From Mytilus edulis (taxonomy: Eukaryota): DNA of 64,000 bases. The notes under the pieces were generated by a model that did not search any database, had not been told where the DNA came from, and saw nothing but the letters and a program-made list of their open reading frames with translations. The translations under genes were made by a program, and so were the position numbers. Below, piece by piece: positions 1-63,542 of this stretch; position 1 is the first letter of the stretch, and each line of letters starts with the position of its first letter. The stretch is from NCBI RefSeq assembly GCF_963676685.1, contig NC_092347.1:12834001-12898000 (forward strand), read 5' to 3'.

Positions 1-1502
1 CATTCGCAATCATACATGCACCACATTTCCTATCTTTCTAAAGCATCACCAAATGGCCGTTGTTTATTCAACTGAACTTTTAGACATTAATACCATTAAA
101 CATTGAATTTTTCAACAAACGTCCAATATATCAGATAAAACAAGTCGCTAAGCATTTCATAAACACGACTTTTGCTTTGATCTGTATAACGATGCCATAA
201 ATTGTATATGACGACATCAAATATTTCACGATTTTGAAAATTTAGAGAAGTCGGATCTTCAACAATCATGATGTCCAGAGGGATAAAATATCATGGCGAC
301 AAATGTAAATATTAAATCTCCTTATATGTTTCTTATTAAGTTATTAAACAATTTAGCCAAAAATTTATTGTGTAACTGACTAGAGACGTTAAGTGCGTCT
401 ACGATTTTGGTGGGATTAATATTGCTCAAGTCTAATGTGACGAGTTTTGTCAAATATTTATCTTTATTTCTTTTTTTATAATTTTGAGTCTCTTGTATTA
501 GGCTAGTGATAAATCAAAGACAAGTAGGTTTTAAAAAACATACTGATTTTAGTAGTTGATTGTTAAGTGGTTGGTTAAAGTGGTTGATTTTTTTAATAGC
601 AAAAACTGTGAAAAACCAAAATATGTAAACTGTGGCAGTACAGACCACCAAAAACAAATTGTTCTATCCTGTTTATTTAGTGGTGAACATTTCGATTTAC
701 AATGTCATAAATACCTTCATATCTAAAAAAAAATGTCACACCATATTGTGACCTTTGACCTTGCATTTAATTTATAAAATCAATAATAAACCGTGTAATT
801 AAGTCTGACAGTACCTCTTTAATCTGGCATGAAATAGATTAGCTTTTATGAATAAATTAGGCTGTCATATTGGAAACTATTAATTCATCATCTATCTGTT
901 TGAAGGTATTATTATCAATATAAAAAGGAAGTTGTAAGACCAGCCGTTGTTGTTAGTGTGTTCTTATACGAGAACATTTTAGGTTCATATATAAAAGTAA
1001 CAATAGTATACCGGTGTTCAAAAGTCATAATTCAATTGAGAGAAAACAAATCCAGGTTACAAACTACATCCGTGGAAACACATAATGATTAACTATAAGA
1101 GGAAAACATAGGAACACTGAAGTGCAAAAAAAAAAAAAAAACGGAAAAAAACCACCGCCAAGTTCATAAAAACGAGCTATTTGACAACAACTTTAATATT
1201 CCTGACTTGGAATTAAAATGGTGGGTTGAACCTGGCTTAAAGACATAATAATGACATTTCCTGTTTTCTATTTTAATAGACATATTTGAGTTACTCTTAT
1301 TAACACCATTAATCTTAAAGGGATGAATTAATGAGTGATGTCTTATTGAAGAGAAGTAATGTTCAATCCACATTTTTTCACAAAACAAATTCAAGTTAAA
1401 ATATAAAACCTCTAAAAGATACAGAGTACTCAAACGTGGAATGTAGAAAGTATAAGTTTGACTCTAAAATCGAAGCAATAAAGCCATTAATAACAAACAA
1501 TT

Positions 1503-1615
1503 CAATAAACTCATCTTAGATACCAGGATTAAATTTTGTATTTAAGCCAGACGCGCGTTTAGTCTACAAGACTCATCAGTGACGCTCGAACTCAAAAAAG
1601 TTAAAAAGGCCAACA
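1503..1615 (-). mobile_element. Retrozyme-like repeat fragment with mutated hammerhead ribozyme
   Basis: Reverse complement reads gcgtca-CTGATGA-gtcttgtagac-TAAA-cgcgcg-TC-tggc; the GAAA box is mutated to TAAA. The downstream tail ttaatcctggtatc..atgagtttatt is shared with other copies. Confidence 0.8.
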
Positions 1616-21522: not shown

Positions 21523-22199
21523 TTAATGGCCGACCGTGCAAGGGCTGTATAGCCAGTCAAGGTCGTTAAAAACTTCCATTTGTTGTGGGTACCTTAACCC
21601 ACCGTGCAAGGGCAGTATAGCCAGTCAAGGTCGTTGAAAACTTCTATGTGTTGGAGTACCTTTAATATGTATGTATAACCAAGTGGACGTACCTAGTATA
21701 TTTTTTTTGCGATTTTCTTTTTTGTTTTCACTTGGAATGGTTTACTCAAAATGGTTTAGATAACAAGCAGATTGATGCATGAATTTGAATGGCTAGTAAC
21801 AATGACATTAATTTTGGACCTACATTTGTTGATTTTATGGAATGTACAATATTTAACACAAGATAAAGGTGACATTAATATAGTTACTCTAGTGTTTGTT
21901 ACATTACACAAACAGAGTAACTTAAAACTTGTTCACACTCATCCCTATACCACAGCAAAGTGTTTACATTAATGTAAATGAGAGGCAAATAATACCAAAA
22001 AAATATTCAAACTCTTATCATTTTGAATTATGGAATATATATCGTCCTCATGCAAAGCTCTGATTCATTGTCAGTGTTCGGTTATACTGCAGTTGCTTTT
22101 TGTTTTGACCAGTTATTTCCACATTTTAGATTTTCAAATAATTCAAACATTATTGAAGAGACATTAATTCACATCTTGTGCATATAAATTGGTACGGTA

Positions 22200-23527: not shown

Positions 23528-23785
23528 TTAATAATTCAGGTCTGAACACCAGGACCCCAGCGAAAGTCGGGGATAATCACAGGTAATCAGATCCTGTGAC
23601 ACATGTGAAATATTGGTTTTGGCGTTGTACGTGTCCTCATACTACTTGTGATTTTAATCGCGGTATCTAATAATGTTTTACTATTATACTTTAATTCGTT
23701 GGCTTGTATCATTGGGCATTAGTTTGAAAGTGGTCTATACAAGACACATGATTTCTTCATCAACCGAAACGCATCACATTCAACA

Positions 23786-24005
23786 TAAACTCATCATAGA
23801 TACCTGGAATAAATTGTGTATTTACGCCAGACGCGCGTTTCGTCTACATAAGACGCTCGATTCCAAAAAAGTTAAAAAGGTAAAAAAAAATACGAAGCTG
23901 AAGAGCATTCAGGACCAAAATGCCTAAATGTTTTGCCAAATACAGCTAGAGTAATCTATTCCTTAAGTAGATTAGCTTTAGTATTTCAAATATTCAAAAG
24001 TTTGT
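23786..24005 (-). mobile_element. Retrozyme-like repeat fragment, hammerhead core deleted
   Basis: acgccagacgcgcgtttcgtctacataagac is present but the CTGATGA segment has been removed. Confidence 0.7.
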
Positions 24006-24360: not shown

Positions 24361-25189
24361 GTTTAAATTAACAGTCAAGCTGTTTAATTTCATTTTCAAA
24401 GATTTTTTTTTAAATTCTAAAATGATTGTCTGAGTTGTACATTTACCGAATTTGTCATTTTTGTGACATTTTAATTGAGTTTGAATTGGTCTGGTAGGCA
24501 AAAATCTCGGTTTTTTTTTTAGAATATAGTATAGTTCATTCCTGTATACAATGTATATATATATATATATATATATATATGTTACAGTAAATGGGTGAAA
24601 TAAGGAATAACACGTTATTACTGAACAATTAAGTAAATATACTCGTATTTACTATTTTAGTAATTACATGTAGTTAGTGATTATTTCAGTAAACACAGGT
24701 AATCACGGCTGATCTTTTGTAATATTCAGAGCTATTAACTAAATTGGTATTTGTTGTTTCAAAATATTATATATATTCAAAGAAACCAAATAAGAAAGAA
24801 CAGAGAAAGAGATTGTAGGACTCACTTTAGGGTTAAGTAATCAAAGGCCCTTCAAAATTGCTTGTTTTTAATTTACAGTTTGTGTACTGAAACTGAAAAA
24901 TGGTTGTTTCATGATTATTAACATTCGTTGAAAACCGTTTAAAACATATAAGTTGATAAATCCTTGCAACGACAATGTACAATTCACAAATAATCTCAAC
25001 TAAACATGCAAAACTATTGTCACCAATGTAAAATATCTATAGAATGATTGCCGTTTTGAACAATGCAAGTTAAGACAATGTTTATAGAATAAATTTTACC
25101 TCAGTCAAACATACAAATTGCCACTAATAACATAGAACGGAAGCCTATTAACACAATGAATGCAAAATCTTCAAATTACGCTCAATGAT

Positions 25190-25392
25190 ACTAAGAATGT
25201 TCTTATCCCAGGCATAGATTACCTTAGCCATATTTAGTTCAACTTTTTGGATTTTGGGGTCCTCAATGCTCATCAACTTTGCACTTGTTCGGCTTTCTAA
25301 CTATTTTGATATGAGCGTCACTGATGAGTCTTATGTAAACGAAACGCGCGTCTTTCGTATTAAATTAAAAGCCTGGTACCTTTGATAACTAA
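25190..25392 (+). mobile_element. Retrozyme-like repeat fragment with hammerhead
   Basis: gcgtca-CTGATGA(25321-25327)-gtcttatgtaaac-GAAA-cgcgcg-TC-tttcgt; core intact, stems I and II mismatched. Confidence 0.8.
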
Positions 25393-28965: not shown

Positions 28966-29150
28966 CATAGATTACCTTAGCCGTATTTGGTACAACTTTT
29001 TGTAATTTTGGGTCCTCAATCTCGATGCTCTTCAACTTTGTACTTGTTTGACTTCATAACTATTTTGATATGAGCGTCACTGGTGAGTCTTATGTAGACG
29101 AAACGCGCGCCAGGTGTATTAAATTATAAACCTGGTACCTTCGATAACTA
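28966..29150 (+). mobile_element. Retrozyme-like repeat fragment, variant hammerhead
   Basis: gcgtca-CTGGTGA(29080-29086)-gtcttatgtagac-GAAA-cgcgcg-CC; A6 and U16.1 are altered. Confidence 0.8.
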
Positions 29151-29289
29151 TTGAACAGAAAGCGGAAGGTCATTTCAAATCTTCATTTTCTGCTGCTAAA
29201 ATAAAGCAGACCTGCGTCCCTATGTTAAACTGAAATATTGTAAATATTGTATAACGTCTATGTATATTCGTATTTAAGTACTTCTGCAA

Positions 29290-29745
29290 TTTGCTGTTGG
29301 AACTGGTGAAACATATCGTATGTCCGGGAGGAACACATTAGAAATGTAAAAATTAAAATCACAATTGAGAAGCTGAAATCATCTCTTTTGTCATAAAGTT
29401 TTGTTTTCAACCCTCATTGCCAGTTTCTAGATGTAAGTCAAGATACGAGGCAGACTTAAATAAACTCATCATAGATACCAGGATTAAATGTTGTATTCAC
29501 GCCAGACGCGCGTTTCGTCTACAAAAGACTCACCAGTGACGATCGAATCCAAAACAATTAAAAGGCCAAATATAGTACGAACTGTATCGGTAGTATCCTT
29601 TACCTCTAGTTCGATGGCATAGATTCGTTCAACATAGTCACCAAATTTTCCATTAATTAGTGAGAAAATATCGTCTATATACCGGAACGTAAAGTTAAAG
29701 GATATTGCTAACTTCTTATCTTTCTTCCTAAGAAGTTCAATTAGA
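29290..29745 (-). pseudogene. Penelope-like RT fragment interrupted by a retrozyme fragment (29460-29580)
   Basis: FNFTFRYIDD..IYAIELEVKDTTDTV / KSASYLDL, with a hammerhead-bearing piece between the two halves. Confidence 0.8.
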
Positions 29746-31454
29746 AAGTATTTCAAATTTTCAATTATTTAAAAGATTTGGCAAGTACATTACAGCACTT
29801 ACATGTTATAGGTGTATATATAAGACAAGAGTAGTACTTTCCTGTGAACATGAAAGAAGTTATGATATAGTTCAAGCAGGATAATTTGGCAGAGAAGAAA
29901 ATATGCCATTGCACAGCCTTTTCAAACCCGTGATACTAATTATATCAATCATCAACAAAACATTGCAGCATAGGCACTTAGAAATCAATTAATTCAGAAT
30001 TTGTAATCATTTGAAAACATCATAAATATCTTATATTTCTCCGAAGGCGCTTCTGTATTATTTGAGATTTAGTTCATTAACCGCTATTCCCTATTGATAA
30101 ATGTTCAGTTAATTGTATCTGTATAACGGGTATAGAAACCAGGGGTGTCCTGTGGCAATCCCTTGAGATAATGTTACAGTCTACTTCATATGATATGATC
30201 AATCGTTTAGTTATTGTTAATTATCCTGTTTTAATGATAAAAGTGGTTCGACTGGTTGATTTTATACTTCCTGAAAATGTACACAATCTTAAATGATTTA
30301 CGTATCACAAGCCCAGCAGTTTGCACTCTTGTGTTGACATAAATTTACTGGGTGAATTTACTACACAGATTTAGCAATCGCCAGCAATAGAATGCCTAAG
30401 CCGTACTAAACACAACATTCCGGCAGTTTGTTTCGAATCTTATGTTCTTCAACATCATATTGATTAGATTCCAGTGCCACTGTTGAATATTGCTTAGACA
30501 TTCTCATCTCGCGCAATAAATTATAAGGCTGGTATTTTGTAAGACCTCGGAAGGTACCAAGACCTTGTTGATAAATATTCCGTATCAACTTCACAAATGA
30601 TGCATGATGGTCTTAATGTATAGATTCTGCATACTGAAGTTGTTTATCATCTTAACAACGTGTTATATTGTTCTTTCATTTGTCTTTGTTCTATTATTAA
30701 TATTACTTTTACTGTTTGATTGTTTTATGTGATATCCATTTAACGTGGCTCGGTACTTAAACATCCCGTCAATGTGTTTGTATTATCTTTCATTTTTTGC
30801 TTGTGTCTTTTGTATATGCGACTTTTTGTGTTTCTTTGGTTCTTATCACTCTGTACTTTAAAAGATCCCGTCAGTATGATATTGTTCTAGTATATGTCAT
30901 TATGATATATTTCTATTATATTAGAAAATACGTTGAACCACAAACGTCAAAATTATTCAATCGATTTGTGGATTCTTATAAATTCTATATAACTTTTGGA
31001 ATATTTTAAATCTCGCTCTATTTCTGAAATTAATTCTTACATACTTTTGATTTTTTTTAACCCTGTCTGCTAACACTGCCCATCTGAAATTTTAAAATTG
31101 TTTGTATGAACATTGAACGACAAAAATATGTGACGTATATAATTTTCTGACGTCAGACACGCGAATGAATGAATGTGTTTGAAGATAGATGTTTTTGTAT
31201 TCTGTTAAATTGTTTCTTTTTCAAAATTATTGACTGATGTACCCATATTTTGACTACATTATTTATTATGTCTGTTTAGTTCACGCATCATCGTAAATAT
31301 AACAGCATTTAATGAGACTGTCAACAAAGTGATAAAACCAGGTTTAATCCACCATTTCTACATTTGAAAATGTCTGTACCAAGTCAGGAAAATGACAGTT
31401 CTTGTCCATTCGTTTTTGATGTGTTTTGTTATTTGATTTTGCCATGTGATTATG

Positions 31455-31745
31455 TAGTCAGCGCTTCTGTGTTGAGTTATCATTGATATGATCATAACTA
31501 TAAATTAACTGTTAACTAAACTTTGAATTTTTCAAAACCTGAGGCTTTTCTACCTCAGGAATATGTTACCTTAGCTGTTTTTGGCAAATTTTTCGGAACT
31601 TTTGGTGTTCAATGCTCTTCAACTTCGTACTTTATTTTGGCCTTTCAAACATTTGAGTGTCACTGATGAGTCTGTTGTAGACGAAACGCGCGTCAGGCGT
31701 AAATGTACAATTTTAATCCTGGCATCTATCTATGATGAGTTTATT
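31455..31745 (+). mobile_element. Retrozyme-like repeat (second subfamily) with hammerhead
   Basis: gtgtca-CTGATGA(31663-31669)-gtctgttgtagac-GAAA-cgcgcg-TC-aggcgt; core intact, first stem I pair mismatched. Confidence 0.8.
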
Positions 31746-32445
31746 TCCCCATTTCTCTACCTCTCGACAAAATGACAATGTCCCGAGTCGGGGCAGTCTG
31801 CACCTAAAATTAAAAGATAGAACTCCCAATGGAACTTCAAGTGACAAATACTGAAACTTTGTTTACAATTTTTGTTTAACGAATCATGTTATTGACATCA
31901 CTTTGCAACCATTCGTCAGTATTTTATTTTGGTAAATGGGTATAGGAAGGAAGATGTGGTATGAGTGCCAATGAGACAACTCTCCTTCCAAATAAAAATT
32001 TATAAAAGTAAACCTACTTGTTTTTTAATGATTACTGAAAAGTTTTCAAAATTACTGAACATTTGATAGATTGTTACTGATTGTGTCAAAAGGGGATTGG
32101 CATCTATGTGTTGTTAATAAAATGGAATTCGATGCAACTGTCATAGAAGTAAAAGATTTAGCTAGCTATCAAACTAGTTTTTTCAACATTTTCTACATTA
32201 GAAAATGGCTGTTCCAAGTCGGAAATATGACAGTAATTTGTATTTCTCATTCTTTTAATATGTTGTAGTTTTTGATTTTTCCATTTTTAATGAAGGACTT
32301 TCCATTTTGCATTTTCCTTTGGAGTTTTGGATTTCATTTCATTTTCCTCATTAATTTTTTTTTAATTAATATTTAATCGAAGGAAAAGGACACGTTTACA
32401 TTAACAAATTAAATTATCAATCAGCATCAAGGCTTCATTTTGGTA

Positions 32446-36629: not shown

Positions 36630-38280
36630 CAACACACTTTGGTTGCAAATTAGGACACCAGCGACACTTGATTAATTTATTTAAAAATCACATTCTTTTC
36701 TGTAAGTCTATGAAAGGGTCGGTCTATTTTTGAAAAATCTTTAATGAATTTTCTATGTAAGAACAGGTTCCAAGAAAACTTCTTATATCCTCAACATTGG
36801 TTGACATAGGCCATTACTGTACAGCTTCTATTGTAATTTGATCTGGTGTAATACCATCTGCGTTCACAACATGTCTCAGAAATTAAACTTTCATTTCAAA
36901 AATAAAACACTTTTTAGAAGCAATTTTCAACCCACCCAACTAAATTCTATCAAAAACATCTTGGAGCCTGGTAATGTGCTCCTCAAATGATTAAGTTAAG
37001 AAGACACAAAGATGTCATCTAGGTAGACTACCCAGATGAAATATATTGCATAAGTCTGGAATAGGTGGTTCCAGCATTTCACAGACTAAAAGGCATACGA
37101 TTAAATTTAAAAAGGTATTTACTGGGGGAAAAAATGTTTTAGCCCGAACTTGAGGGTCCCTGCCCACTTGATAGTAACCACTAGCCAAATCGATAGCATT
37201 AAACCATTGATTTCCTTTTAACACATCAATACAGTCCTCTTTTCTAGGCAAAATATATTTATATTTAATAGACATATCGTTGACTAAGCGAACATTTATA
37301 CACAGGCGAAAAGACTTGTCTTTCTTGCGAACAACTACAATAAGGGAGCTCCATTGTGACTGGAAATGACGTATAATACTCCTATCAAGCATAAGTTGTA
37401 TTTCATCGTCAACTTCCTTTCTTTGAGCCAAAGGTTCACGCCGTGGGTTTTGTTTTATAGGATGAGCATCTCCTGTTATTATTTGATGTTGTATTATGTC
37501 CGGCCTACCCAGGTCATTTTTTCTGACATTGCAAAAAGCTCTAGAGTATTTAGTTAAAAGGTCAACTACAATTTTGCATTCATCGGCCTTGGGGTTACTT
37601 TTACACTTTTTCATCACAACTTGCAGGTAAAACTAAATCAGGTTCTGCATTTATGTTTCCCAAAATGTTTTCTGAACATACAGTTTCAGCTGTACCAGCA
37701 CAATTATTTTATATAAGGTCTGGGGCAAATCAGTCATATTCATGACACGTAAAGGTAAATTATCTCCCTTTAATGTGCAAATAGATTTTACAATAAGGAC
37801 TCCCTTATTCTTAAAAGACTGACTAGTATTGCTAAGAATCATGGTTGTACCAGTATAACAATCAATGTGTGATTGATGTACCAAATAAAATTCTTTTATT
37901 GAATAGTCAGACTGTGGACTGTTATTTAGAGAGTCAAATACCTAATTTGTTTAAAATATCAATTGACTATACCTCCCAATAGTGAAACCATTATTCATGC
38001 ACTACCAAATGAGAAACTACCTTATATGAACTCATATCCTAGAATAATAAGTTTTTCAATATCAGCAATCACAAAAATTTGGTATATGTACTGATCGTCT
38101 CTTAAAAATGGTAACTTAACGATGCCTAATGGTGCAACATAATGCTCATCTGCCATTTTCAAAATATTTTCACATGGTTGTAACTAGTTTTACAATGCTC
38201 AGGTAATTCGTCAAAAATTTTGGGGTTTAAAACACTCATAGATGCCCCAGTATCATGCCTAATAATGGCAGTTTTACATA
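36630..38280 (-). pseudogene. Ty3/Gypsy pol remnant (protease-RT)
   Basis: DTGASMSV protease motif near 38240; PIKQNPRR, SQWSSLIVVVRKKD..RLCI and IDLASGYYQV RT motifs; multiple frameshifts. Confidence 0.85.
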
Positions 38281-44164: not shown

Positions 44165-44535
44165 TTCTATATTGTGATGTTATGCTATTGTTTCAGAAAA
44201 AAGGGAGAAGGTTTGGTACCATTAAAACGTTTAATCCCGCTGCAAATGTTTGCAGCTGTCCCAAGTCAGGAATATGATGTACAGTAGTTGTCGTTTGTTT
44301 ATGTAATTTATACGTGTTTCTCGTTTCTCGTTTTTAATATAGATTAGACCGTTGGTTTTCCCGTTTGAATGGTTTTACACTAGTAATTTTGGTAACCTTA
44401 ATAGCTTTTTGTTCGGTGTGAGCCAAGGCTCCGTGTTGAAGGCCGTACATTGACCTATAATTGTTTACTTTTATAAATTGTTATTTGGATGGAGAGTTGT
44501 CTCATTGGCACTCCCACCACATCTTCCAATATCTA
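44165..44535 (-). repeat. Dispersed repeat family A
   Basis: Near reverse-complement identity with 53452-53815. Confidence 0.85.
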
Positions 44536-45635
44536 TAGCTAGATAGTACAATTAATTATCTAATTACTACCACAATTTGATATTAAAAAGGATTGTAATT
44601 TTTATTGTTATTAATACATTTTATATCAGTATTACAAATTTAATCTTGAATTCTATCCTTATTTTCTCTTATTTTTGGGAAATGTTTTTAGAAATTCAAA
44701 TTTGACGTCACTTTGAGCGTTGATGGCTATGGCTAACTCGGCCGTGAATTATTTATGTGCTGGTTTAGGTTGTTTTATGTAATGAATCCGTTTTTATTCT
44801 GTAGTTAGTCACCACTTCGGGTTATCGTGTATATCTAATATATAGTCATTTTATTCAAATTTACTGTTTGCAAAAGTATGAATTATTCTAAATAATATGG
44901 ATATTCTTAATATCACAGGCAGAAACCCTAACCGTATTAGGCACAACTTTTTGGAACTTTTTCTCAATGCTCTTCAACTTTGTACTTGTTTTGGCTTTCG
45001 AACTTTTTTCATCTGCGCGTCACTGGTATATCTTGTGCGTCTGGCGTAAAACATTTCAAACTTGGTACCTTTTGTTAGCTATTATTTATGTGTTTCTCTG
45101 TCCTATCATTTGTTTTCCCATTTATCATGTTTATTTGTATTGTAGTCCTGTCCTGTAATGTTGTCATTTTAATGTTTTTTTAACGTTGCCATAAAAGCAG
45201 GTTCAGCTCACCATTTTTTTCTTAAAATGTCCTGTACCAAGTCAGCAAACTGGTCATTGTTATATAATAGTTCGTTTCTGTGTGTTACATTTTAATGTTG
45301 TGTTTCTGTTGAGTCGTAGTTCTCCTCTTGTATTTGATGCGCTTCCCTCAAGTTTTAGTTTGTAACCCGGATTTGGTTTTTTTCAATCGATTTATAAATT
45401 TCGTACAGCGGTATACTACTGTTGCCTTTATTTGTGTTTTTGAGCTTTTTGCTTTAGCCATTTGTTTAGGGACTTTTCCGTTTTGAATTTTTCTCGGAGT
45501 AAAGTATTTTTGTGATTTTACTTTTTTTCCTTCATTTCAATTCAATGCAATTCAGATATTTTTTGTCATATAAGCTCTAAACTTCTATATGTTTGTAATC
45601 ATTTATATCTTCGGATTTCAAATGTTTGGCTTTGA

Positions 45636-45677
45636 GCGTTCCTGATGAAGGTAAATCCAGAAAAGCGCTTCGGACGC
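45636..45677 (+). ncRNA. Minimal type I hammerhead ribozyme, second family
   Basis: gcgttc-CTGATGA-aggtaaatcca-GAAA-agcgct-TC-ggacgc: 6-bp stem I, intact core and palindromic stem III aagcgctt; predicted cleavage after C45671. Confidence 0.75.
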
Positions 45678-47189
45678 AAAACATTATTAAAGGTGTAGTT
45701 TTCAATTTTTTATATGAATGCAAACATTCGATGAAGCAATGCGTTTCTCCAAATGATGCAAATCAATAAACCCATGAATTTGAAATAGTAACTGCAGTCT
45801 GATTAAATTTTAAAGACACAACAGAAATAAATACTGGGGATAATTATCGGTGCCCCTGACCATACTTCATTACGCCTATGACAAATTAACATTCGGTTAC
45901 AAATCGAATTCTTTCTTGTCAAAACCGAGGAAACGTGATCAGATTTGTGACCGGTACTTTACCCCTAAAGAATTATACAGGCGATTAAATAGCCAACAGA
46001 ACATCGTCATTGAAAAGATAACAAAAAGCCTGTATCAAGTCAGGAATATGACAGTCATCTTCCATTCGTAAGATGTGTTTGAGCTTTTGATTTTGCAATT
46101 TGAGTTTTCTTTTTGAATTTTCCCCTGAGGTCAGTATATTTGGGATTATACTTTATACCAAATAAAAAGAAAAGAAATGTCGTCCCGTTTGACATTTCTT
46201 TTGTAATATATTCGGATTACTTTTTATTGGTCTGTCAATGGTAAGTTCAGCACTAGCATACAGAATGCAAACGCAACACAACATGTCTGAACTAAGCAGC
46301 ATCTTGTCATAGACCGACATAAATACACATTATAATATCGCAAGATGTCTAATTCCATCATTTAGCGTGTCTATCAAGTTCATCCAATAGGACTAATGCT
46401 TAAACGTGAATTGAATGTTAAATTTCCTTCGGGACGCTTATACATCACCTTCTTAAAACTAAGTGTAATATAATATTGTATAAAAGTGCAAATTGAATTC
46501 TGTAGAATTAACGAACTTCGTTCTACTTCAGATGGAACCATATCTGATCGTCTCGTTTTGCTTCAACGTATCAAATTCCTATTAAAATTGATTGAACTGC
46601 ATATTGCTTAGTATCAGAATAAATAAAATTGTCTACTAAACCTAAATTGCACAATATCGTTCATATGGAACTTTAATGTTAAATATTGTAATCATATACG
46701 ACGTATATGAGGAGCCAACATTTGAATTGATCCAGTTTATTTTTGAACTAGTTTTCCCTCTAGCCCGGTATTCATTAGACTACAGCCTGGATTGCAATTC
46801 GAACACAGCGAGCAATAGCTAAACTTGTGAAGTTCTATTTAACACAGAATAACCTTTTGTACAGAAACGGGAGTTTTTATCGCGGCAGCAACCTCTATTG
46901 AATTTTCAAAACGAGGTTTAATTTTTAATATATCAGTAACATCCATTTTTACTGCCTGGATTTTGATATCAAAGTTCTTAACGTGGCTGGTACTCAGATT
47001 GAGTAAGTAAGATTTAACATCAATATCGTCTTGGTTATTCAGGTTTGATGGAACCTTCAGTTTTGCTATAGTTTTGGTTTTTTTTATTGACGAAATAATA
47101 CAATATATGATGTCTAATTCAGTTCGGTAACTTATCATATTGCTTTTTAATAGTTTTGTTGGCCTTCACAGTAACTAAAGTTTATAAGT

Positions 47190-47606: not shown

Positions 47607-48342
47607 ACAAAAGATTAAATTAATTAGTAGCAATAGTCCACAAGATTCAAAACTATGATGCAACTTTTTGTAGTCATATCTTTGTCTTTTTAAATGAGAA
47701 CTCCAATGTACTCGTCATTCAACACGTAAGCAGATAATTAAAACAACTTAAATGGATTACTAGTGATCCTTTTCACATTTACTGGTTTTAAATTTAAATT
47801 CTATTTAATAACTATCTATCTACTTGTGTTAGTGTCATATCATTTAGTTTGGTCTTTGGTGTCGAATAACTATTCAATTGCACTATTGCATGTTTACTCC
47901 AAAGATTTCCGATCTATTCTAACCATTCATGTTTACAGACTGTAAAAGTCTAAATCAGAAATAAAAATCCAAATTAATGTGATTATCTGATACTAACGTA
48001 ACTTTAATTTCATCGTTTCAACTTCATACACTGACAATTTGTTCCTCCTGCATGTTATTTTCTTTCAAAAAATTCTGCGGATGCTTGTATTCTGCTTGAA
48101 ATCCTCGAACTAGTATTAATTGATTTCCATTTAATTTAGTAAAAAACAGGGTGTAATGCATTTGCTATTGAAAGTGTTTCCTAATCGGTTAAACGGAAGT
48201 ATTTTAAGAAACACATTTAACGGGATTTTGAATATTATATTGTTTATGGAACTTTTAAAATCTGCCTTTTTTTCTTACTGTTTTCTCAATAACTGAAATT
48301 CTGCCTACAAATTTTAATTGTTAGTTAAAACTTATCATAGAA

Positions 48343-48620
48343 AAAAGAAGATGTGGTATGATTTCCAATGAGACAACTCTCCACAAGAGACCAAAATGAC
48401 ACAGAAATTAACAACTATAGGTCACTGTACGGCCTTCAACAATAAACGAAGCCCATACTGCATAGTCAGCTATAAAAGGCCCCGAAAGGACAATGTAAAA
48501 CAATTCAAACGAGAAAACTAACGGCCTTATTTATATAAAAAATGAACGAAAAACAAATATGTAACACATAAACAAACGACAACCACTGAATTACAGGCTC
48601 CTGACTTAGGACAGGCATAT
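48343..48620 (+). repeat. Dispersed repeat family A
   Basis: aagaagatgtggtatgatttccaatgagacaac...gacttaggacaggc. Confidence 0.8.
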
Positions 48621-48623
48621 AAA

Positions 48624-48980
48624 TATTTACACCACTGGGTCGATGCCACTGCTGGTGGACGTTTCGTCCCCGAGGGTATCACCAGCCCAGTAGTCAGCAC
48701 TTCGGTGTTGACATGAATATCAATTATATGGTATTTTTATAAATTTTCTGTTTACAAAACCTTGAATTTTTCGAAAAACTAAGGATTTTCTTACCCCAGG
48801 AGTAGATTACCTTAGCCGTATTTGGCACAACTTTTTGGAATTTTGGATCCTCAATGCTCTTCAACTTTGTATTGATTTGGCTTTTGAACTATTTTGATCT
48901 CAGCGTCACTGATGAGTCTTATGTAGACGAAACGCGCGTCTGGCGTATAAAATTATAATCCTGGTACTTTTGATAAATAT
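48624..48980 (+). mobile_element. Full monomer of the retrozyme-like repeat (~350 nt)
   Basis: Colinear with 59787-60146; contains an intact hammerhead and an antisense hammerhead-like motif. Confidence 0.88.
48903..48946 (+). ncRNA. Minimal type I hammerhead ribozyme, intact
   Basis: Stem I gcgtca/tggcgt, CTGATGA 48909-48915, stem II gtct-tatgt-agac, GAAA 48929-48932, palindromic stem III acgcgcgt, GUC cleavage triplet ending at 48940. Confidence 0.9.
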
Positions 48981-49702
48981 ATACATATTTTAATACAAGA
49001 TTATATCAATCGGATAATTGAAATAGTCTGATACCTAGATGGAATAATCCTACAGTTATACAAGTAGCAACAAGAAACTACATTGACAATGTCTCCCTGG
49101 TATCACTCCTTTGAATAACGTCAACATCATGTGTATTGTGTTATGTACAGCCCGGCAGTGAATGAGGTAAATAATTTCTGAAATACTGTTGTTTATGATT
49201 CCATTGAACATCTGTTTATGGCATACTCTCAAATATACCAAGGACAATTATTTATTTGATTTGGTTTATAATCCTCAGAATGTAAATTTTAACAACAATC
49301 AATTACTAACTAAAACATTAAAAGGAAAACAATCAAGATAGGAACTCATTCTTCGAATTCAATCAACTCTAAATAAGAAAAATGGAAGTGTTCAAAATAA
49401 ATGTGCAAAACTAGTTAAAAAAAAATTTCTTTTCTCCAAGGTAAACCATCACCAATCCAGTTTTCCTATTCAAAAGTAGTCTTTAATAATATGAAATGTG
49501 AATAAAATGCTAATAAGAGAAGTAAGAAATAAACAACTCAAATTATTGTCTAGATAACTACTCTGCTTTACATCATTTGCAGTAATAACCATTGCTATAC
49601 TTCTACAAGAAAACAGAAATGTGTCGGTAATGGTCTATAATTGTTCCGATGATGAACTTAATGAATAAAGATCGTATATATGTGAGCATGCTATATTATT
49701 AG

Positions 49703-49829
49703 TTACATGGTGTGTTGGTGACCTTACACGATATATATGGGGTCAGTAAATCTCATATTTCACTCGAATCCCCATATGGAATTTACTAACCCCATATATA
49801 TCGTATAAGGTCACTAGCACACCATGTAA
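49703..49829. repeat. ~55-bp-arm inverted repeat (hairpin element fragment)
   Basis: ttacatggtgtgttggtgaccttacacgatatatatgggg ... ccccatatatatcgtataaggtcactagcacaccatgtaa. Confidence 0.8.
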
Positions 49830-51357
49830 ATAAACTTGTCAAAGATACCAGGATTAAATTTGGTATTTACGCCAGACGCGAATTTATCATACCGAAGAGC
49901 TTAACATGTGGTATTTAAATTATCGGCCTATCAAAGTGATTAAGACTTCAATACTTAGTTTTAACATGTTAATTTAAGAACCTACTTCTATTTGTCTTTA
50001 CAAAAAAACCAATGCCAACAATAACAACGTTTTAGCTTTAAATTTTTTATGGATATATTTCCATCGTCCATTATCAGTTTCTTCCTCTGTTTAAACCTTT
50101 CAGATTTTATTTTTGTTCTGAAAGGGAAGTAACTCCTTACTAACCCCATATGGTTGCCAACCCTATATGGTAACTAACGATATATTTTTTAGGACACCCT
50201 ATATCATATATATATAGTCACTACGTGTAGTCCATTTAGCAATCATATTCCAATAAATCTATAGGAGGTAAGATAAATAAAATTACATAGTATGTTGGGT
50301 AAAAAGAATTACTTCTGTGGAGGCTTAGTAGGGGAACACTGGTACTTTTCATTTGTGTATTAGGGATTTAATTGCATTTTCCTGCCATTTGTGGGCTCAG
50401 GTGGTTGCAACTTTTTTTAGTAGTATTATACAATTGCATAACATAAAGAGTTCATAGCTAAGATCATGTAAACATTTGATGTAAAGCCAAATCTATGCAT
50501 CTTTAAAGTAGTGCAATTAATGCAAGCAAAATGTTTCTTGGTTCTAAGATACACTCTCAACTGTTTATATAACCAATGACAAATTTAAAGACTGAGTTAA
50601 GTGTTTTTCTTTATTAAAGATATTATGCTGTAGTCATGTATATTGTTTCTCGTAAAGCCCTCAATAATTCAACTTTCAACAAATACTTGTTCGATTATAT
50701 TAAGGGTTTCATTTATTTTCCTAATCTCAGCTGTACATTTATCATTATAAAAGTGTTATTGCTATTTTCTATGATGCATTTTGAACGTTTTAAATCACAG
50801 TGTCAGTTCTACCGGGAGAGAGAAATTTATATCCGTTGATCTCACTAAATTACTACAAGGGATAAAAACAATCTATAATTATCTGTAACACAGAAAGTCT
50901 TTCATTATTAAACCAGAGAAAATTTTGCAGTTACGTGATTAAAACCATAACTCCTGTATATTGTTTTAGAAGTGATAATTCTTGTGCTGCAAATAATTGC
51001 TTTGGATTATGGTTATAAGGTTTCATCATATTGATAGGTGAAATGAATATATTTTTAGTTGAAGGATTTCTCTGCTGCTTTTAGAAAAGAATCACAACAA
51101 TACCGATGTTAATTCGTCCAGTTATTGTAAATTCGGTGAATGAAAATGTATATTACCAGGGTAAACGCAGATTATGCAAAAGAACCAAAATACGAATTGT
51201 AATCGCTGTAATACCGGCGTTACACATCAGCGTATAGCTCCGACGTACGCCGGGTGTGTTAAAAAATCATGTGCGCTGCCAATACGCTAGTAGTTTTGGA
51301 TGCATTCAACCTGTCAATCATCTGTAAAGTGTGCACAAGCGTGTATTGGACGTATTC

Positions 51358-52540: not shown

Positions 52541-53847
52541 TTGTATTATAGTTCGTTCTGTGCGTGTTACATTCTAATGTATTGTAATTCTCCTCTTATA
52601 TTTGATTTGTTTCCCTCAGTTTTAGTTTGTAACCCGGCTTTGTTTTTTTTTCTCAATCGATTTATGAATTTCGAACAGCGGCATACTACTGTTGCCTTTA
52701 TTAATGATATGAACTGAATAAATTAAAATAAACCCTGGAAATCAGAGGCTAGTATTTGAATTGATTTTGTAAATGATATATATAACAATGCTATCCGAGC
52801 GCAGCGAAATATACCAAAATGACCAGACTGTCTTCAAAAACCTTTTATGGACAGAATGGCCATCCGGAACAAGGTAGGGGAATGCTGCGCTTAACTTTGA
52901 CAATTACTGCAGTATTGATTAAAAAAATGTGTGACGACAATCTGATAACACAACTAATATAATTCTATAATATTCAAATAATATATAATATTGCTCAAGA
53001 AAAACAAAATTGCTGAGAAAACGTTTCCCCAGCATGTCCGCTTATCAAAAAGGTTCCAAGTGTACCCTTAATAATATTCAAGAACACATAATTGCCAAGT
53101 GATGCAAGGTGAACTCAATCTTCCACCAAAAATTACTTTGTTATTTTTTTTATGTCTGGATAATGAATACAACACCAACCATTTTTCAGGAAAAAAAGTA
53201 GCAATGGTGCTAATTAATCGGAGCCTAATCTAATTATTGCAAATAACCGAACCTTATCTTGCTTAAGAATGTCATTACCCAAATGTGAATGTGAACTATA
53301 ACATCTGGCTGTTCTTCATATCCAATCATCGTATTGATTTGACCCTTCATTTTACAACATAACAACCCGCTCCTTTCTAGCCACCACACCGTTGCTCCTA
53401 ATTGGATCAAACCGAAATTCACACCAGGTCTATTCCTTTTTGTGGAAAATAGATGTAGGAAGATGTGGTGTGAGTGCCAATGAGACAACCCTCCATCCAA
53501 ATAACAATTTTAAAAAAGTAAACCATTATAGGTCAATGTACGGCCTTCAATACGGAGCCTTGGCTCACTCCGAACAACAAGCTATAAAGGGCCCCAAAAT
53601 TACTAGTGTAAAACCATTCAAACGGGAAAACCAACGGTCTTATGTATATAAAAAACGAGAAACACGTATAAATTACATAAACAAACGACAACTACTGTAC
53701 ATCAGATTCCTGACTTAGGACAGGTGCAAACATTTGCAGCGGGATTAAACGTTTTAATGGTACCAAACCTTCTCCCTTTTTCTGAAACAATAGCATAACA
53801 TCACACCATAGAAAAACATACGATAAAATATCAATTGGCAGGCTTAA

Positions 53848-55107
53848 GGTGGTACCTAACACTACAGGGAGATAACTCTGTAAAGTCATCTAGACGTTTT
53901 AATTACGTTGTTTTAAAAATTGTAATATTATAGAAAACTTGCATATGCAATTTTGTAAAATAATTTTGAATGTTAAAAAAAGTACTGCTCATTGTATGAT
54001 TTATGGAGAATTGGGTAGAATACCATTACATATTCTTATTAAAGCTAGAATGGTTGGTTTCTGGCAACGTATCATGTGTGGTAAAAGAGAAAAAATTTCA
54101 TATACACTGTATTCTATATTGTATCAGCTTAGTAAAAGGGGTATCTACCACTCTAAATGGTTGTTAGAAATTAAAAATACTTTATATGAATGTGGATTTA
54201 ATTTGATGTGGGATAATCAAATAATTGCTAAACCTGATAATATTAGTAAGAATGTCAAGAAATAATAAATTTATGTTGAACTGGAGTAATAATGTTATGA
54301 ATTCTGCAAAATGTCTTAATTACAGAATATACAAGTCTGATTTTTGTTTTGAGAAATATTTAACTGTGTTACCATCTGATCTAAGAATGTATTTATGTAA
54401 ATTCCGTTGCCTTAGTAATAAATTGCCCATTGAAACGGGGAGATTTTTTAATATTGATAGATCTGAAAGACATTGTAATCTTTGTAATGCTAACGAACTT
54501 GGTGAAGAGTTCCATTACTTATTCAAATATACCTTTTTCAACAATGTTAGAGCTAAATTTTTACCTTTAGATATATGTAAAAACCCAAATGTTTTAAAAT
54601 TTAAAGAATTGATGAATACATCAGATTTATTCACACTTACTGGAATAGCAAAATTTTGTAAAAGTGTTATTAAAACTTTTTAATACATGTGCTTAATCAT
54701 GTTACTATATTTTGTACTTCCTGTCAAATATCTGTATTAATTATATATACTATTATTGCACTTTTGTTAACCATGTTCTAATGTAAATATGTAAATATGT
54801 TCATACTTTTATAGTTTGTTAAAAAATGTTGTACTAACATACCCCATGTGGGGGCTTTAGTGAAATAAAATGTCTTATGTCTTATGTCTTATGTTGTGTT
54901 GTAAAAGGAATATTAAGCTTCTCAATGATCAAAATTGGTGGTTGTCAAATTGATATATAACCAGTGTAATTTTTCTGACAAAACGGTTGGTTCAAAATGT
55001 ATAATTTTTTTTATATTTTTGTTAAAGTGTCCAAGTAAATACTTTGACAAAATTTTAGGAAAATTAAACCAGCCAAATTAATTTTAGTGAAAGTATTGGG
55101 TACCACC
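53848..55107. mobile_element. Kolobok-type MITE (TTAA TSD) carrying a LINE insertion
   Basis: TTAA(53844-53847)-ggtggtacctaacact ... agtattgggtaccacc-TTAA(55108-55111). Confidence 0.85.
53912..54893 (+). mobile_element. 5'-truncated CR1/L2-group LINE 3' end
   Basis: FCKIILNVKKST..YGELGRIPL and LPIETGR..RHCNLC..GEEFHYLF; AATAAA followed by a (tcttatg)n tail. Same protein type as 10973-11452. Confidence 0.88.
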
Positions 55108-56544: not shown

Positions 56545-57353
56545 ACAATAACAATCAAAACCAAGGAGTAAACAACGACTCACAACACCAAAGCACATTT
56601 ACATCAACAGTTATAAATAATAAATAAGAAACAACACGGACTCCACTAAAAACCGGGAGTGAAATCAGGTGCTCCGGACGGGTAAGCATTTCCTGTACCG
56701 TATACGGCACCCGTCGTGTTATTTCTTTGTTCAGTTCGGTAATGTTGGAAGGTTATTATGACTGAGGAAGAATATCAGTTATGATTTCTGACACACTTTT
56801 TGTCATAGTGGCCAATCAGCTAATGATGGCGATCGTAAAATTTCTTGAGTGATGACCTTAATTTGATTGATTCATAGCCCTGACTTAGCAACTTTTGAGA
56901 AAGCAGTATTCCTCGTTCAACAAAATCAACGTACTTTGAGATAGCTCTAGAGTAACGTCTCAATTAAGACACATATACTCCATATGCTGGTGCCGCTCGG
57001 ATGTTGCTACACAGAAATGAAAAGTTGACTATAGGAAAACTAATATCACCGCGTTTGTCATAAATTTTAGTATTCAACCTACCATCAGTAGTCATTTCGA
57101 GAAAAAGGTCTAAATATGAAGCAGATATATCTGTGTCGGAAGTATCTTTAATTTCAAGTTCACTTGGATATATTAAATGTAAGTGATCACTGAACCTATT
57201 ATTATTAAGAGACAGTACATCATCAATATACCGAAAGGTGAAATTAAAAGACTGGGTTACATATTTCTCCTTTTTGTACAAGACCTTGGAATACTTCTGC
57301 TTCATAGGAGTACAAAAACAATTCTGCAAGTAGAGGAGCGCAATTAGTACCAA
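56545..57353 (-). pseudogene. Penelope-like element RT C-terminal half and 3' region
   Basis: FNFTFRYIDDVLSLNN..IYPSELEIKDT..ASYLDL..TKIYDKR..PAYGVYVS, then frameshifts. Confidence 0.85.
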
Positions 57354-58639
57354 TTGGGATTCAAATAGTCTGTTTATGCAGCGAAAAACGTTGAAAGGGT
57401 TAACAAATTATCATGTGGATGGGATAGCCCTAGCACAGAAAGCCATTAAACCAATAGACGACTCTAAACCATTTACCAGAACCTTTTTCATAGTCAGCAA
57501 GTTAAGTCAGGTTATTTTAATTATGCTGTCAAAAATCCTGACCAACATCTGATCAGTATCTATTTCTAATACCCACCTACCCACCACCAACAAAAAAATA
57601 GTTAAGTAGTTGGTCCGACTGTTTTATTTTGGAATTTAGACATTTAAACCTGACAGTCATTTGTTAGAGCACCTCCAGCTGAAATGAAACCTTCCAGGTA
57701 ATGATCAAGCGTGTCTAAATTGTCAATTGCATCTCTGAGGAGGAGTAGCTCTCTTTCTAGTAGTATCAAAAATATAAAACCATATACTTGATGTTGGTGT
57801 GTGCAAAGTTTAAACAAAAATATTGTAATATACAAATAAGTGTACGTAAAGGTTGGTAATCGTGCAAAAACAATAAGTTATATTCAACTTCGTATGAAGT
57901 ACAATTTATGACCCAGGCAAATGATTCCATTATAAATCAAGTAATCACTTCTAAACTACGTAATCAATTATGAATCAAATAATCACTTATGATTCATGTT
58001 ATCAAAATTCGACAACAGTAATTAGACGATTACCACATTCATAAACAAACGTGTAATCACATGAATCAGACTTGCATACAAACAGGCAAGTATCCAAAAT
58101 TTAACGTTTCAACAATGCACACAAGCTAAAAATATTGACGGAATGTTCTATGGAACTGTGACCGTTGTGCGAAATTATAATTTCGCACATCTCATGGCCA
58201 GGATATATTTCTAAATATGCGCTTCAATTGTATAAATAACGATGCAATAATGTTGATTCTACGAAATTAAAGCCAATTTATTTTGTGCCGTTATGCAGTT
58301 GTAGACTTGAATTCTACTGGCTGCCTTGCCATCTGCTAAATAACCATGTTCGCCGTACACAACCCAATCAAATTGTCCCAATAGAAGAAACCTTCTTACA
58401 AAACATGTGCCTGTAGCTAATCAGAAATCGCGTTATAATATGTTGACCTTTAACCAATGTGCTAAAACTATTGACCTGAAATCATGTGTGCTATAAAAAG
58501 AACAAAGTAAGGTGTGGAAATTTCCACTGGTTGACATCTATACATGCATGACGCAATCAATGGCTTTATCAATTTAGAGAAATTCACCAAAAATATATTT
58601 ATTATACATCTCTGTATTATATTATACAAACTTAACAGT

Positions 58640-59750
58640 AATAACAGATTTGCTGTTTCCTTGTTGGGTTGTACTGTTTTGCATGGCAAAGGTCCACTAA
58701 ATGGCAACGGAGTCTTTTGTCCAACGTTATAAGTAACGGAACTCCGTTCTGTGCTCATAAGTGTGGTGCTGGCTGTTGTAAAATTCGGTAGAGGAAGAAA
58801 TGTAGAAGGACCAATTGCTAAAGTTTTAGGAGGCACTGTACAACTTGAGCTTGGTAAAGAACGAATATTTGATGATGTTTCGCCAGCAGTTAAGCCTAAT
58901 GCTTTAGAAGGTTCAGTGATGCTTTCTGTTAACGTCTGTCCATACGTATCTTATCATTATTATGAACCCGCTGATACAAAAAAAAAGGGATGCTACTGAC
59001 TTATGTCCAGTTACGGCCATGATCTGTGCATTGCAATATGAGTTTTTAGCTAGAACAGTAGCCCCGGTAGCACGGATTGATTGGTTAGAGTAAATTTCAG
59101 ACAAGTTGCACTTCTTGCTCAGGTATGACATGAAATTGCCAAGCGTTTTTTCGCCCACAGGAATGTTATAATACCATGAAGGGTCCTCTTCCCAAAACTG
59201 ATCTTTTGGTCTCTGCCATAATTGTCACACTCTGGATTTAATTTATTTACATACTTTTCAAAGGAGGACACGGGGCAATATTCAGAACCGGAATTTTCTG
59301 GCATTATCCCTGAAGTTTTTTCTTTGTCACTGCTGCGATGGTTTTTTGGCAACTCATCTAAAGTTTTAACAACATATTTTAGCCCCGTCTTCGGATCTTT
59401 TTTTTTACAGAAAACGTGGATTTTGTCATTTGTGGCATATTTTCCATTCCCCGTCGACAAAAATACAGGCGAATATCAAACTGAACTTTATTTTGAGCCT
59501 AAAAGGAGTATTTGGTGATAAATATATTGAGGTATACATTTTTCTTCTGTCCGCTCCGTCAATAGACGGATAATGCTCGACGTCTCCTAATCCCATGCAT
59601 TTAAGTTCTGCCATTGCCGCTTTAAAATTTTCTCTGGAAGCGCTAAAACTTTCATCATTCACAATGTCAATGTTTTTATTGTACGGTGGAGTCTTTAAAT
59701 ATCTATTCAATGAGTATCTCAAGCACTGCAGTTGGGTCAAAGCATGATAA
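58640..59750 (-). pseudogene. Crypton-type (DUF3504-like) tyrosine recombinase, frameshifted
   Basis: Stitched frames give LRYSLNRYL, IRLYFCRRGMEN, CPVSSFEKY, WYYNIPVG, YSNQSIRATGAT and IMAVTGHKS; the upstream end is cut by a retrozyme insertion. Confidence 0.85.
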
Positions 59751-59772
59751 CTTATAATGTATTTCACTATGT

Positions 59773-60146
59773 TATAATCCTGGTACCTTTGATAACTATT
59801 TACACCACTGGCTCGATGTCACTGCTGGTGGACGTTTTGTCCCCGAGGGTATCACCAGCCCAGTAGTCAACACTTCGGAATTGACATGAATACAATAATG
59901 TTGTCATTTTTATAAATTTCCTGTTTACAAAACTTTTTTCCAAAAACTAAGATTTTCTTATCCTAGGCATAGACTACCTTAGCCGTATTTGGCACATTTT
60001 TTGGAATTTTGGATCCTCAATGCTCTTTAACTTTGTACTTGTTTGGCTTTATAAATATATTTGATATGCGCGTCACTGCTGAGTCTTATGTAGACGAAAC
60101 GCACGTCTGCCGTACTAAATTATAATCCTGGTACCTTTGATAACTA
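59773..60146 (+). mobile_element. Retrozyme-like monomer with terminal redundancy (348-nt period)
   Basis: tataatcctggtacctttgataacta occurs at 59773 and 60121; the hammerhead at ~60070-60113 has CTGCTGA (A6 mutated). Confidence 0.88.
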
Positions 60147-60469
60147 ATTAAGTTATTTCTATAACAAATTAAACATCGATGAACGCAGATTAAATGAAAT
60201 CATTCTTAGCCTATCAACCACGTATTTTCTCTTCCAATGTTTTTGAAAATAGGAAGTACGTCACTATGAGTCTGGCGTACTAAATTATAATCCTGGTACC
60301 TTTGATAACTATTTGATGACGTATTTTGTAGCTAAATACCGCAACTATTTTAAATTAACGCAAACACAACTATAAATATAGGCAACCATAGTATACCGCT
60401 TTTCGTCATTCATAAATCGATTGGGAAAAAACAAATCTGGGTTACAGACTAAAACTGAGGGAAACACAA

Positions 60470-61008
60470 TCCCCCGCTGGCGGCCATCTTGGAAAATGGA
60501 TTGACTACAAAGAAACAACATTTGGTCAGCCCCTCAAAAGGAACATTCATGCTATGTTTGGTTTCATTCCATTCAATAGTTCTCTAAAAGAAGACATTTG
60601 TATCTATTTCCCATATGGTCCTATGTTAAACTAAGTCCCCCACTGGCGGCCATCTTAAATGATGGATCGTTTACAAAGTAACAACACTTGGTCAGCACCT
60701 CATAAGGAACATTCATGCAATGTTTGGTGTCATTCCATTCAATGGTTCTTTAAAAGAGGTCGTTTGTATGCATTTCCCAAAGGGTCCCATGTTAAACTAA
60801 GTCCCCGCTGGCGTCCATCTTTGATAATGGATCGGCTACAAAGTAACAATACTTGGTCAGCACCTCATTAAAAACATTCATGACATGTTCGGTGCCATTC
60901 CGTTCAGTGGTTCCTAGAAGAAGTTCAAAATTCAAATAGTTAACGACGACGACGGACGCAAAGTGATGAGAATAGCTCACTTGGCCCTTGGGGCCAGGTG
61001 AGCTAAAC
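60470..61008 (-). mobile_element. Helentron-type element end with ~165-bp tandem units
   Basis: ccc.ctggcg.ccatctt recurs at ~60471, ~60637 and ~60802; (gac)n microsatellite and terminal palindrome agctcacttggccc-tt-gggccaggtgagct. Confidence 0.75.
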
Positions 61009-62237: not shown

Positions 62238-63542
62238 TTATTACATTGGTTGCAATGAATTACATTGATTTCCCAGTCAAATAAAAACCGATTATATCAC
62301 ATGTGAAATAAGCGTGGTTATTTCACTCTCTGACGTCATACAACAATAGTTGTTATCAAGACGTCGATAACGTCGGATCAAAACATGCGTAGGAAAAGCA
62401 TATAGTTCCTTACATTTTCTACATTAATTTCATAAAAAAAGAGCCATTTGCCAATGTAATAAAAAGAATAACTAATCAAAGAATTCAAATAGAGAAAAAT
62501 ATTCAACGAGTGACCGAACAACACATTAATTCACAAATGCGCGTAGCGCATGAGTTAATTATCAGTGTTGTTCGGTCACAAGTTGTCTTATTTTTGATAT
62601 TCAAATACGGCGATTCGTTATACTTTTTATTACATTGGCTAATGGCTTTTTTTTATGAAATTAATGTAGAAAATGTAAGGAAATATATGTTTTTCCTACG
62701 CATTCACAATTTGTTTTGATCCGACGTTATCACCGTCTTGACAACGCCTATTGTTGTATGACGTCAGAGAGTGAAATAACCACGTTTATTTCACATGTTA
62801 AATTATCGGTTTTTATCTAACTCGGAAATCAATGTAATTTATTGCAACCAATGTAATAATTAATTATCACATTAATTATCAGTGTTGTTCGGCCACGAGT
62901 TGAGAACATTTTTCGATATTTGAATTCTTTGATAAGTTATTTTTTTCATTACATTGGCAAAGGGCTTTTTTAAGTAAATTAAAGAAAAAATGTAAGGAAC
63001 TATATCTTTTTCTACGCGTTTTATTTTGTTTTGGTCCGACGTTATCGATAACGTCTTGACAACGCCTATTGTTGTATGACGTCAGAGAGTGAAATAACCT
63101 TGTTTATTTCACATGTGAAATTATCGGTTTTTATTTCACTGGGAAATCAATGTATTTCATTAGTTGAATATTTGTGGATATTTGAATTCTTTAATTAGTT
63201 ATTCTTTTTATTACATTGGCAAAAGGCTTTTTTAAAGAAATTAATATAAAACATGTAAGGAACTATATCTTTTTTCTACGCATTCACAATTTGTTTTGAT
63301 CCGCCGTTATCGACGTCTTGACAACGCCTATTGTTGTATGACGTCAGAGAGTGAAATAACCACGTTTATTTCACATGTGAAATTATCGGTTTTTATTTAA
63401 TTGGGAAATCAATGTAATTCATTGCAACCAATGTAATAATTATGGAATAACTAATGGAAGAATTCAAATAGAGAAAAATATTCAACGAGTGACCGAACAA
63501 CACATTAATTCACGAATGCGCGTAGCCCATAAGTTAATTATC
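62238..63542. repeat. Foldback element with an internally amplified arm
   Basis: One inverted ~290-bp arm, centre gcgcgtagcgc, then three direct copies of the complementary arm. Confidence 0.85.

Follow-up and report, generated by a model that had tools for sequence, protein, structure and literature searches.

The window analysed here is a stretch of 64,000 nucleotides of Mytilus edulis (contig NC_092347.1, positions 12,834,001 to 12,898,000), and it raises the question of what the hammerhead-bearing repeats scattered across it are and which enzyme writes them into the genome. Penelope-like elements have been proposed as the helpers that return animal retrozymes to the genome, with neither the clade nor the signal named for molluscs.

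Copies of the family in the window

An earlier note, made from the sequence alone, had described 11 copies or fragments in two subfamilies. Using BLAST with real array units, we recovered all of them at the same places and on the same strands (6 A-type, 5 B-type). The division into A and B holds, but the family comprises at least four lineages (A, B, C, D), and a lineage C copy with its own hammerhead had been missed. The copies are as follows:

1504..1615 (-): lineage B, 5'-truncated, damaged core
23785..24005 (-): lineage B, 5'-truncated, first half of the core deleted
25188..25391 (+): lineage A, truncated at the 5' end, with damage in stems I and II
28966..29152 (+): lineage A, 5'-truncated, damaged core
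29457..29581 (-): lineage B, inserted within Naiad N3 sequence (fragment 29359-29738), target overlap about 2 nt
31454..31746 (+): lineage B with an intact core and mismatches in stem I, directly adjoining a Naiad N1 3' fragment (30547-31454) on its 5' side
44806..45083 (+): old, decayed A-type piece without the hairpin, within a Naiad N2 3' UTR fragment (44561-45429); the window matches N2 across the piece
45604..45710 (+): lineage C, 5'-truncated; hammerhead at 45636-45677 with an atypical stem II
48619..48985 (+): young solo unit of lineage A, about 1.0 unit, from the hairpin leader to the fixed 3' end; 97.8% identity to a young array unit
49825..49880 (-): lineage B, tail fragment
59772..60150 (+): about 1.07 units of lineage A with a damaged hammerhead core; the hairpin is at 59795-59880
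60270..60314 (+): lineage A, fragment consisting of the tail alone

The unit at 48619-48985 differs at 6-7 positions from units of four young arrays and shares 96-99% identity with dozens of array units, and no reading frame of at least 100 aa crosses it. The copy at 45.0 kb is a passenger in a Naiad 3' UTR and does not represent an independent insertion, since Naiad N2 elements spread a decayed, hairpin-less retrozyme piece in their 3' UTR (7/7 fetched elements, L226-L232), which is partly duplicated in one subfamily.

We observe 13 retrozyme matches in the window, one of them doubtful (22017-22069), compared with 28 matches in 400 kb, or 4.5 per 64 kb, when 40 evenly spaced 10-kb stretches are sampled, an excess of about threefold (bootstrap P ~0.005, uncorrected for the window having been picked for its copies). 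If perfect cores alone are counted, the window does not stand out (2, with 0.72 expected; P 0.16). Weak matches to the unit without a hammerhead, at 22017-22069 and 30302-30465 (two scraps near 30.3 kb), are possibly old remnants or chance.

The hammerhead ribozyme

48903..48946 (+): type I hammerhead, core and stems intact, predicted cleavage after 48940; Rfam RF00163

The copy at 48.9 kb had been credited with every core nucleotide and stem, and the Rfam check agrees, with RF00163 matching at 33.0 bits (gathering score 34; E 2.4e-4). The motif has a 6-bp stem I, a 4-bp stem II and a 2-bp stem III within an 8-nt palindrome, and the cut position proposed earlier, 48940, coincides with the site predicted from the sequence, given the GUC triplet at 48938-48940. 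Weaker RF00163 matches occur at 31657, 25315 and 1544. The core and all stems are intact only at 48.9 kb; the 31.66-kb copy has an intact core with mismatches in stem I, and the rest are tail fragments or have damaged cores or stems. Across lineages A/B, C and D the hammerhead is kept with compensatory stems. As a side observation, stem II of the lineage C hammerhead is 2 bp long and starts from an A-A pair at the base, an arrangement that hardly varies in the copies seen.

The motif had also been placed among minimal type I hammerheads with a palindromic stem III. The palindromic octamer is present, but the authors of PMC7229834, in its main text, class the mussel motif as a retrozyme hammerhead and not as the minimal Penelope type. 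A tendency to cleave as dimers is not what the literature describes for mussels: in the main text of PMC7229834 a mussel clone of monomer length cut itself at about 0.1 per min, and it was axolotl motifs that needed dimers, while a passage in a review (PMC7761336) describes cleavage as monomers for most invertebrate motifs. Stem III nevertheless keeps a palindromic octamer in A/B, C, D and E, with computed energies of -10 to -13 kcal/mol for the duplex and +2 to +5 kcal/mol for the hairpin, and because this feature recurs across four differing lineages some dimer pairing is plausible. Dimer help for cleavage is plausible and dimer dependence is unsupported.

The isolated hammerhead is not the lowest-energy fold, and whole-circle folds are unremarkable (z -0.6 to -2.0). 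Within the inner hairpin of lineage A, positions 48660-48668 hold a 9-nt complement to the hammerhead core that could block the core in a circle; this complement is not conserved in lineages B, C and D.

Lineages and tandem arrays across the genome

Genome-wide (1.37 Gb), exact A/B cores number 15,388, with none for a reversed-pattern control, and exact cores of lineages C and D number 1,190 and 4,617. Tandem arrays have periods of 355-356 nt (A), about 365 nt (B), 350 nt (C) and 349 nt (D) and reach 13 or more units, and the window's own copies are solo. Units of A, B and C have a GC content of 36-39%; A and B share 81-84% identity and C shares 66-68% with either. With regard to LTRs, the units have unique flanks and random 5' ends. 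The earlier assignment to non-LTR retrozymes of the kind reported in mussels, with a unit of about 350 nt, thus stands, as we find a unit of about 355 nt, a type I hammerhead and tandem repeats; the family is a non-coding, non-LTR retrozyme that matches the published mussel family in size and features, compared by description. Three further loci (L076:258-625, L109, L189) hold lineage D, with its 349-nt period, and an E-type hammerhead, with a swapped stem II and a different palindromic stem III.

Four young arrays show 0-4 nt differences between units of the same array and 4-9 nt between arrays, as expected if each array had been copied from one molecule, and two older arrays vary more internally. 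Being solo with one ribozyme, the 48.9-kb copy could not cut out a full monomer alone, and the tandem arrays elsewhere are the likely RNA sources.

Insertions share a fixed 3' end

48941..48985 (+): tail of about 40 nt from the cut site to the fixed 3' end, delimited by the distribution of 3' ends

We took loci in order along one contig (C1). Tail-anchored loci of lineage A numbered 65, of which 3 were dropped as edge or duplicate cases; the dropped rows are L073 and L160 (duplicated loci) and alignments reaching the locus edge, and L084 was removed from the B count. When anchored on the hammerhead, 36/40 lineage A copies end at +36..48 past the cut and 14/18 lineage B copies at +46..52. In the tail-anchored A set, 59/62 end at +36..48, an anchor that itself forces ends beyond about +39. 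Retrozyme insertions therefore stop about 40 nt beyond the cut, immediately ahead of a 58-nt hairpin, and in lineage C 19/19 loci among those listed also end before it. The earlier note had neither the fixed end nor the hairpin, which are the informative features of the family.

The 5' ends, in comparison, are scattered, with 5/62 near the cut site against about 3.7 expected. Stopping of the reverse transcriptase (RT) at the cut site was considered and rejected, as 5' ends are unenriched there; an apparent cluster of starts at query positions 306-308 proved to be an artefact of the search. The cut site is crossed by 56/59 copies, and a linear monomer consequently cannot be the template.

Target-site duplications of at least 8 nt directly at the junctions were found in 0/62 inserts. 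By eye, two loci (L045, L100) have longer duplicated flank pieces. Within Naiad sequence, inserts come with deletions of 3-7 nt or an overlap of about 2 nt, the AT content at the 3' junction shows no preference (0.69 against 0.68 in distant flank), and no poly(A) was found at insert ends. Inverted retrozyme pairs, head-to-head or tail-to-tail and some with 40-50-nt spacers, were seen at L049, L076, L082, L087 and L134, which is a Penelope-like signature.

These patterns bear on whether the family might be a satellite-like repeat that recombination and unequal crossover have spread at the DNA level, its hammerhead being a fossil. Tandem arrays of homogeneous units are what such a process would give, and local amplification has been proposed in a recent preprint (bioRxiv 10.64898/2026.07.22.740005). 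However, the copies have a single fixed 3' end and random 5' truncation, are dispersed on all large contigs, and sit in known Naiad sequence as clean inserts with 3-7-nt deletions, and the family's RNA is sense-biased. We consider this explanation largely refuted and very improbable.

A hairpin shared with Naiad elements

48634..48691 (+): 58-nt hairpin common to the 5' start of Naiad N1, N2 and N3; predicted, likely RT binding and initiation signal; fold z -2.8, covariation

BLAST of the units against 30 GIY-YIG loci gave one match, at unit position +60..104, and the matching locus is a Naiad (N-terminal endonuclease, CxC, GxKF, DKA). A Naiad protein search, in which 150 of 3,841 candidates were scored, revealed three families (N1, N2, N3) with many intact frames of 1000-1053 aa, and N3 copies that are 96-99.9% alike. 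All three have an N-terminal GIY-YIG domain with an upstream CxxC finger, the CxC motif and the DKA motif; the GxKF form was seen in N1 alone. Hammerhead core patterns were found in none of 4 full-length Naiad sequences.

Naiad N3 and the lineage A unit share 86% identity over 71 nt (E 5e-17). When the hairpins of lineages A to D and Naiad families N1 to N3 are aligned, 97.8% of cells are paired, compared with 32-51% in slid controls, and 8/17 pairs show double changes, with 0/500 shuffles as high, a shuffle test that relatedness can inflate and that uses a structure folded from the same sequences. In each of N1, N2 and N3 the hairpin follows immediately on the 3' end of a preceding partial copy and comes shortly before the ATG. 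The terminal ends of Naiads extend 0-4 nt into the leader of the hairpin in 9/9 N3 and 5/5 N1 cases (N2 termini lie outside the fetched stretches), so that Naiad ends (14/14) and retrozyme ends stop at the same point. As the hairpin and the end point are common to both, Naiad RT is the likely helper.

The hairpin model found none in the 29 other GIY-YIG loci, within 1.5 kb on each side of the endonuclease, a span outside which most 5' ends of the C-terminal-endonuclease elements lie. Among 80 motif-selected metagenome loci, one had a strong hairpin match and the other 79 were chance matches. The strong match is itself retrozyme-like, with a unit of about 330 nt that has the hairpin and ends at the same point; it makes up 1.4 units on a contig with animal DNA (L305:785-1200), close to an exon that we take to be glutamate-receptor-like. 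A second ribozyme in the hairpin was sought and rejected, with no Rfam match at E up to 1. The unit also holds what we presume to be look-alikes of tRNA-like polymerase III boxes A and B; a polymerase III promoter was set aside because lineage C is without a box A match and the unit contains several T runs.

The hairpin could alternatively be an ancestral relic of a Naiad junction, with another retroelement, such as a hammerhead-bearing Poseidon or Neptune or a LINE, now mobilising the retrozyme. Type I hammerheads are common to retrozymes and canonical Penelope-like elements, and in Xenopus the retrozymes match Penelope-like pLTRs (bioRxiv 10.64898/2026.07.22.740005). In addition, young elements with a C-terminal endonuclease are present here, one with its own hammerhead, and an excess of head-to-head Naiad-retrozyme hybrids, which had been predicted, was not seen among 92 inserts (7 opposite against 5 same for 5' ends, 5 against 5 for 3' ends). 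Against it, the hairpin is conserved with covariation across lineages that are only 66-68% alike, retrozymes end at the same hairpin offset as Naiads, and the insertions have neither the poly(A) nor the regular target duplications that LINE partners give. Hammerhead-bearing C-terminal-endonuclease elements were rejected as a source, as they have only separate inserted copies and short weak matches in common with the retrozyme. The 48.9-kb type of hammerhead sits outside the pLTR of any coding element, with flanks that are unique or other repeats, and the sampled coding elements have different hammerheads or none. We regard the relic explanation as improbable. Separately, C-terminal-endonuclease Penelope-like loci adjoin unrelated hammerhead-like motifs (L187:2418; L185:98, 540), including a pair spaced by 441 bp.

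Family RNA and the nature of the template

RNA records of the family number 6,172 of 8.7 million and 10,434 of 7.3 million and are sense-biased, with a sense excess of about 4-fold (X21) and up to 9-fold (X23) in stranded runs, a strand call that assumes the first mate usually reads the opposite strand. Raw reads are deep over the unit and none fall on adjoining unique DNA. Reads at least 99% alike to the 48.6-kb locus make up 251/16,426 (X21), and the RNA signal is thus family-level. Head-to-tail joint reads number 471 and 1,108, and those of lineage C 7 and 11. With the cut placed in the middle of an array unit, sense depth stays almost level and shows no dip at the site. Antisense depth rises about threefold at the hammerhead and tail, which is what read-through from truncated genomic copies would produce. 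No RNA ends at the cut site were listed, and ends do not pile up anywhere along the unit. The head-to-tail joints and the cut-crossing reads fit circles and uncleaved tandem multimers equally.

A further explanation keeps the Naiad helper and the hairpin and takes an uncleaved linear multimer or read-through transcript as the template, with circles a by-product and the ribozyme a passenger. Apart from the reads, which fit either form, Naiads without hammerheads show the same ends, and it is supported by Poseidon PAc, in which ribozyme mutants inserted normally, cleavage is dispensable and unprocessed RNA is the main template, as described in the text of PMC11167929. Conversely, the compensatory conservation of the hammerhead in A/B, C and D, the distinct sequence of each young array and the 5' ends without a pile-up at the cut site tell against it, as does the predominance of circles among the RNAs of the published mussel family (PMC7229834, main text). 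We consider a linear template unlikely, if less so than the relic explanation.

Other features of the window

48337..48615 (-): a different abundant repeat whose T-rich 3' end is fixed, in a 5'-truncated copy that faces the 48.6-kb unit head-to-head

This copy meets the 48.6-kb unit through a short microhomology, and the same T-rich-ended repeat occurs at 5639-5923, 44256-44526 and 53459-53724. A prediction that the hairpin would follow it failed, as the single match after the repeat was a retrozyme, and the repeat was not tied to any coding element. A rhodopsin-family GPCR exon lies at 19990-20760 (+) (PF00001, E 1e-25). Decayed transposon frames at 10973-15351 (-), 37015-37632 (-), 53903-54683 (+), 56621-57407 (-) and 58913-59818 (-) include a LINE-like element with RT, an LTR-type RT piece and a Naiad RT fragment; one piece, with no Pfam match, resembles what we take to be a tyrosine-recombinase-associated domain. 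Tandem arrays at 25913-26689, 60470-60923, 27008-27930 and 62555-63423 have periods of 161, 166, 474 and 262/318 bp, and the 474-bp pair is duplicated Naiad N1 sequence.

Proposed route into the genome

We propose, with a probability of roughly 70%, that this retrozyme, present as arrays and as 5'-truncated solo copies ending before a hairpin shared with Naiads, is copied from predicted RNA circles by Naiad RT. The tandem arrays would first be transcribed, family RNA being present. Hammerheads would then cut out monomers and a host ligase would close the circles, as shown for the published mussel family and as we infer here. Subsequently, Naiad protein would bind the hairpin and nick genomic DNA, and RT would start some 5-7 nt ahead of the hairpin, at a point about 40 nt beyond the ligated junction, a step suggested by the shared ends and by a Poseidon element tested in vitro. 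RT would finally run back through the junction and round the circle, yielding copies that range from 0.1 to more than 13 units in length and have random 5' ends; this pattern is observed and the rolling copying is presumed. The 48.6-kb copy would be one young, single-round insertion.

Somewhat less firmly, we suggest that animal retrozyme circles are probably parasites of the hammerhead-less Naiads, in which a captured 58-nt start hairpin directs a telomerase-related RT to a fixed site, after which copying rolls on. A covarying hairpin shared with intact young Naiads at the same end offset points to a specific enzyme, RNA signal and start site. If this is true, the hairpin would be the cis-signal for initiation by Naiads, which dominate bivalve genomes, and it would offer a portable tag for writing circular RNA into a genome; hammerhead sharing would then not be what pairs a retrozyme with its helper.

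Comparison with known systems

The retrozymes of M. galloprovincialis (Cervera and de la Pena 2020, PMC7229834), as described in the main text, are alike in their type I hammerhead, low-GC tandem repeats of 350-390 bp, thousands of copies, two similar ribozyme families and abundant RNA, in having no LTR, PBS or PPT, and in the Penelope-like helper proposed for them. That study counted about 5,000 motifs in two families, compared with the 15,388 A/B, 1,190 C and 4,617 D exact cores here; the 390-bp unit of its range is not seen here, and its main text names no helper clade, fixed 3' end or hairpin signal.

Naiad elements (Craig et al. 2021, PMC8557442) resemble the retrozyme in the 5' hairpin and end position, 5' truncation, partial tandems and rare target duplications. 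They encode an endonuclease and RT and are without hammerheads, whereas the retrozyme encodes nothing and has only about 60-70 nt in common with them; the terms "hairpin" and "stem-loop" have 0 occurrences in that main text.

In Poseidon PAc of Anolis (Frangieh et al. 2024, PMC11167929), RT similarly starts inside the RNA, downstream of the hammerhead, and the starts match genomic ends; according to the text, the RNA needed for activity or protein binding extends 3' of the RT start. Vertebrate retrozymes (Li, Clavereau, Pollet 2026, bioRxiv 10.64898/2026.07.22.740005) have likewise been proposed to hijack Penelope-like machinery. The evidence in the preprint's accessible sections is pLTR homology in Xenopus and co-occurrence across species, with no mollusc sampled, Naiad found only in coral and no cis-signal named there. 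Our literature search, which covered main texts outside most subscription journals, found no paper naming Naiad or the 58-nt hairpin as a link between a retrozyme and its helper.

Overall, the element is known and a Penelope-like helper has already been proposed (PMC7229834; PMC8557442; bioRxiv 10.64898/2026.07.22.740005), and the link to a Naiad helper is new and testable, an assay format for such a test already existing for another Penelope-like element.
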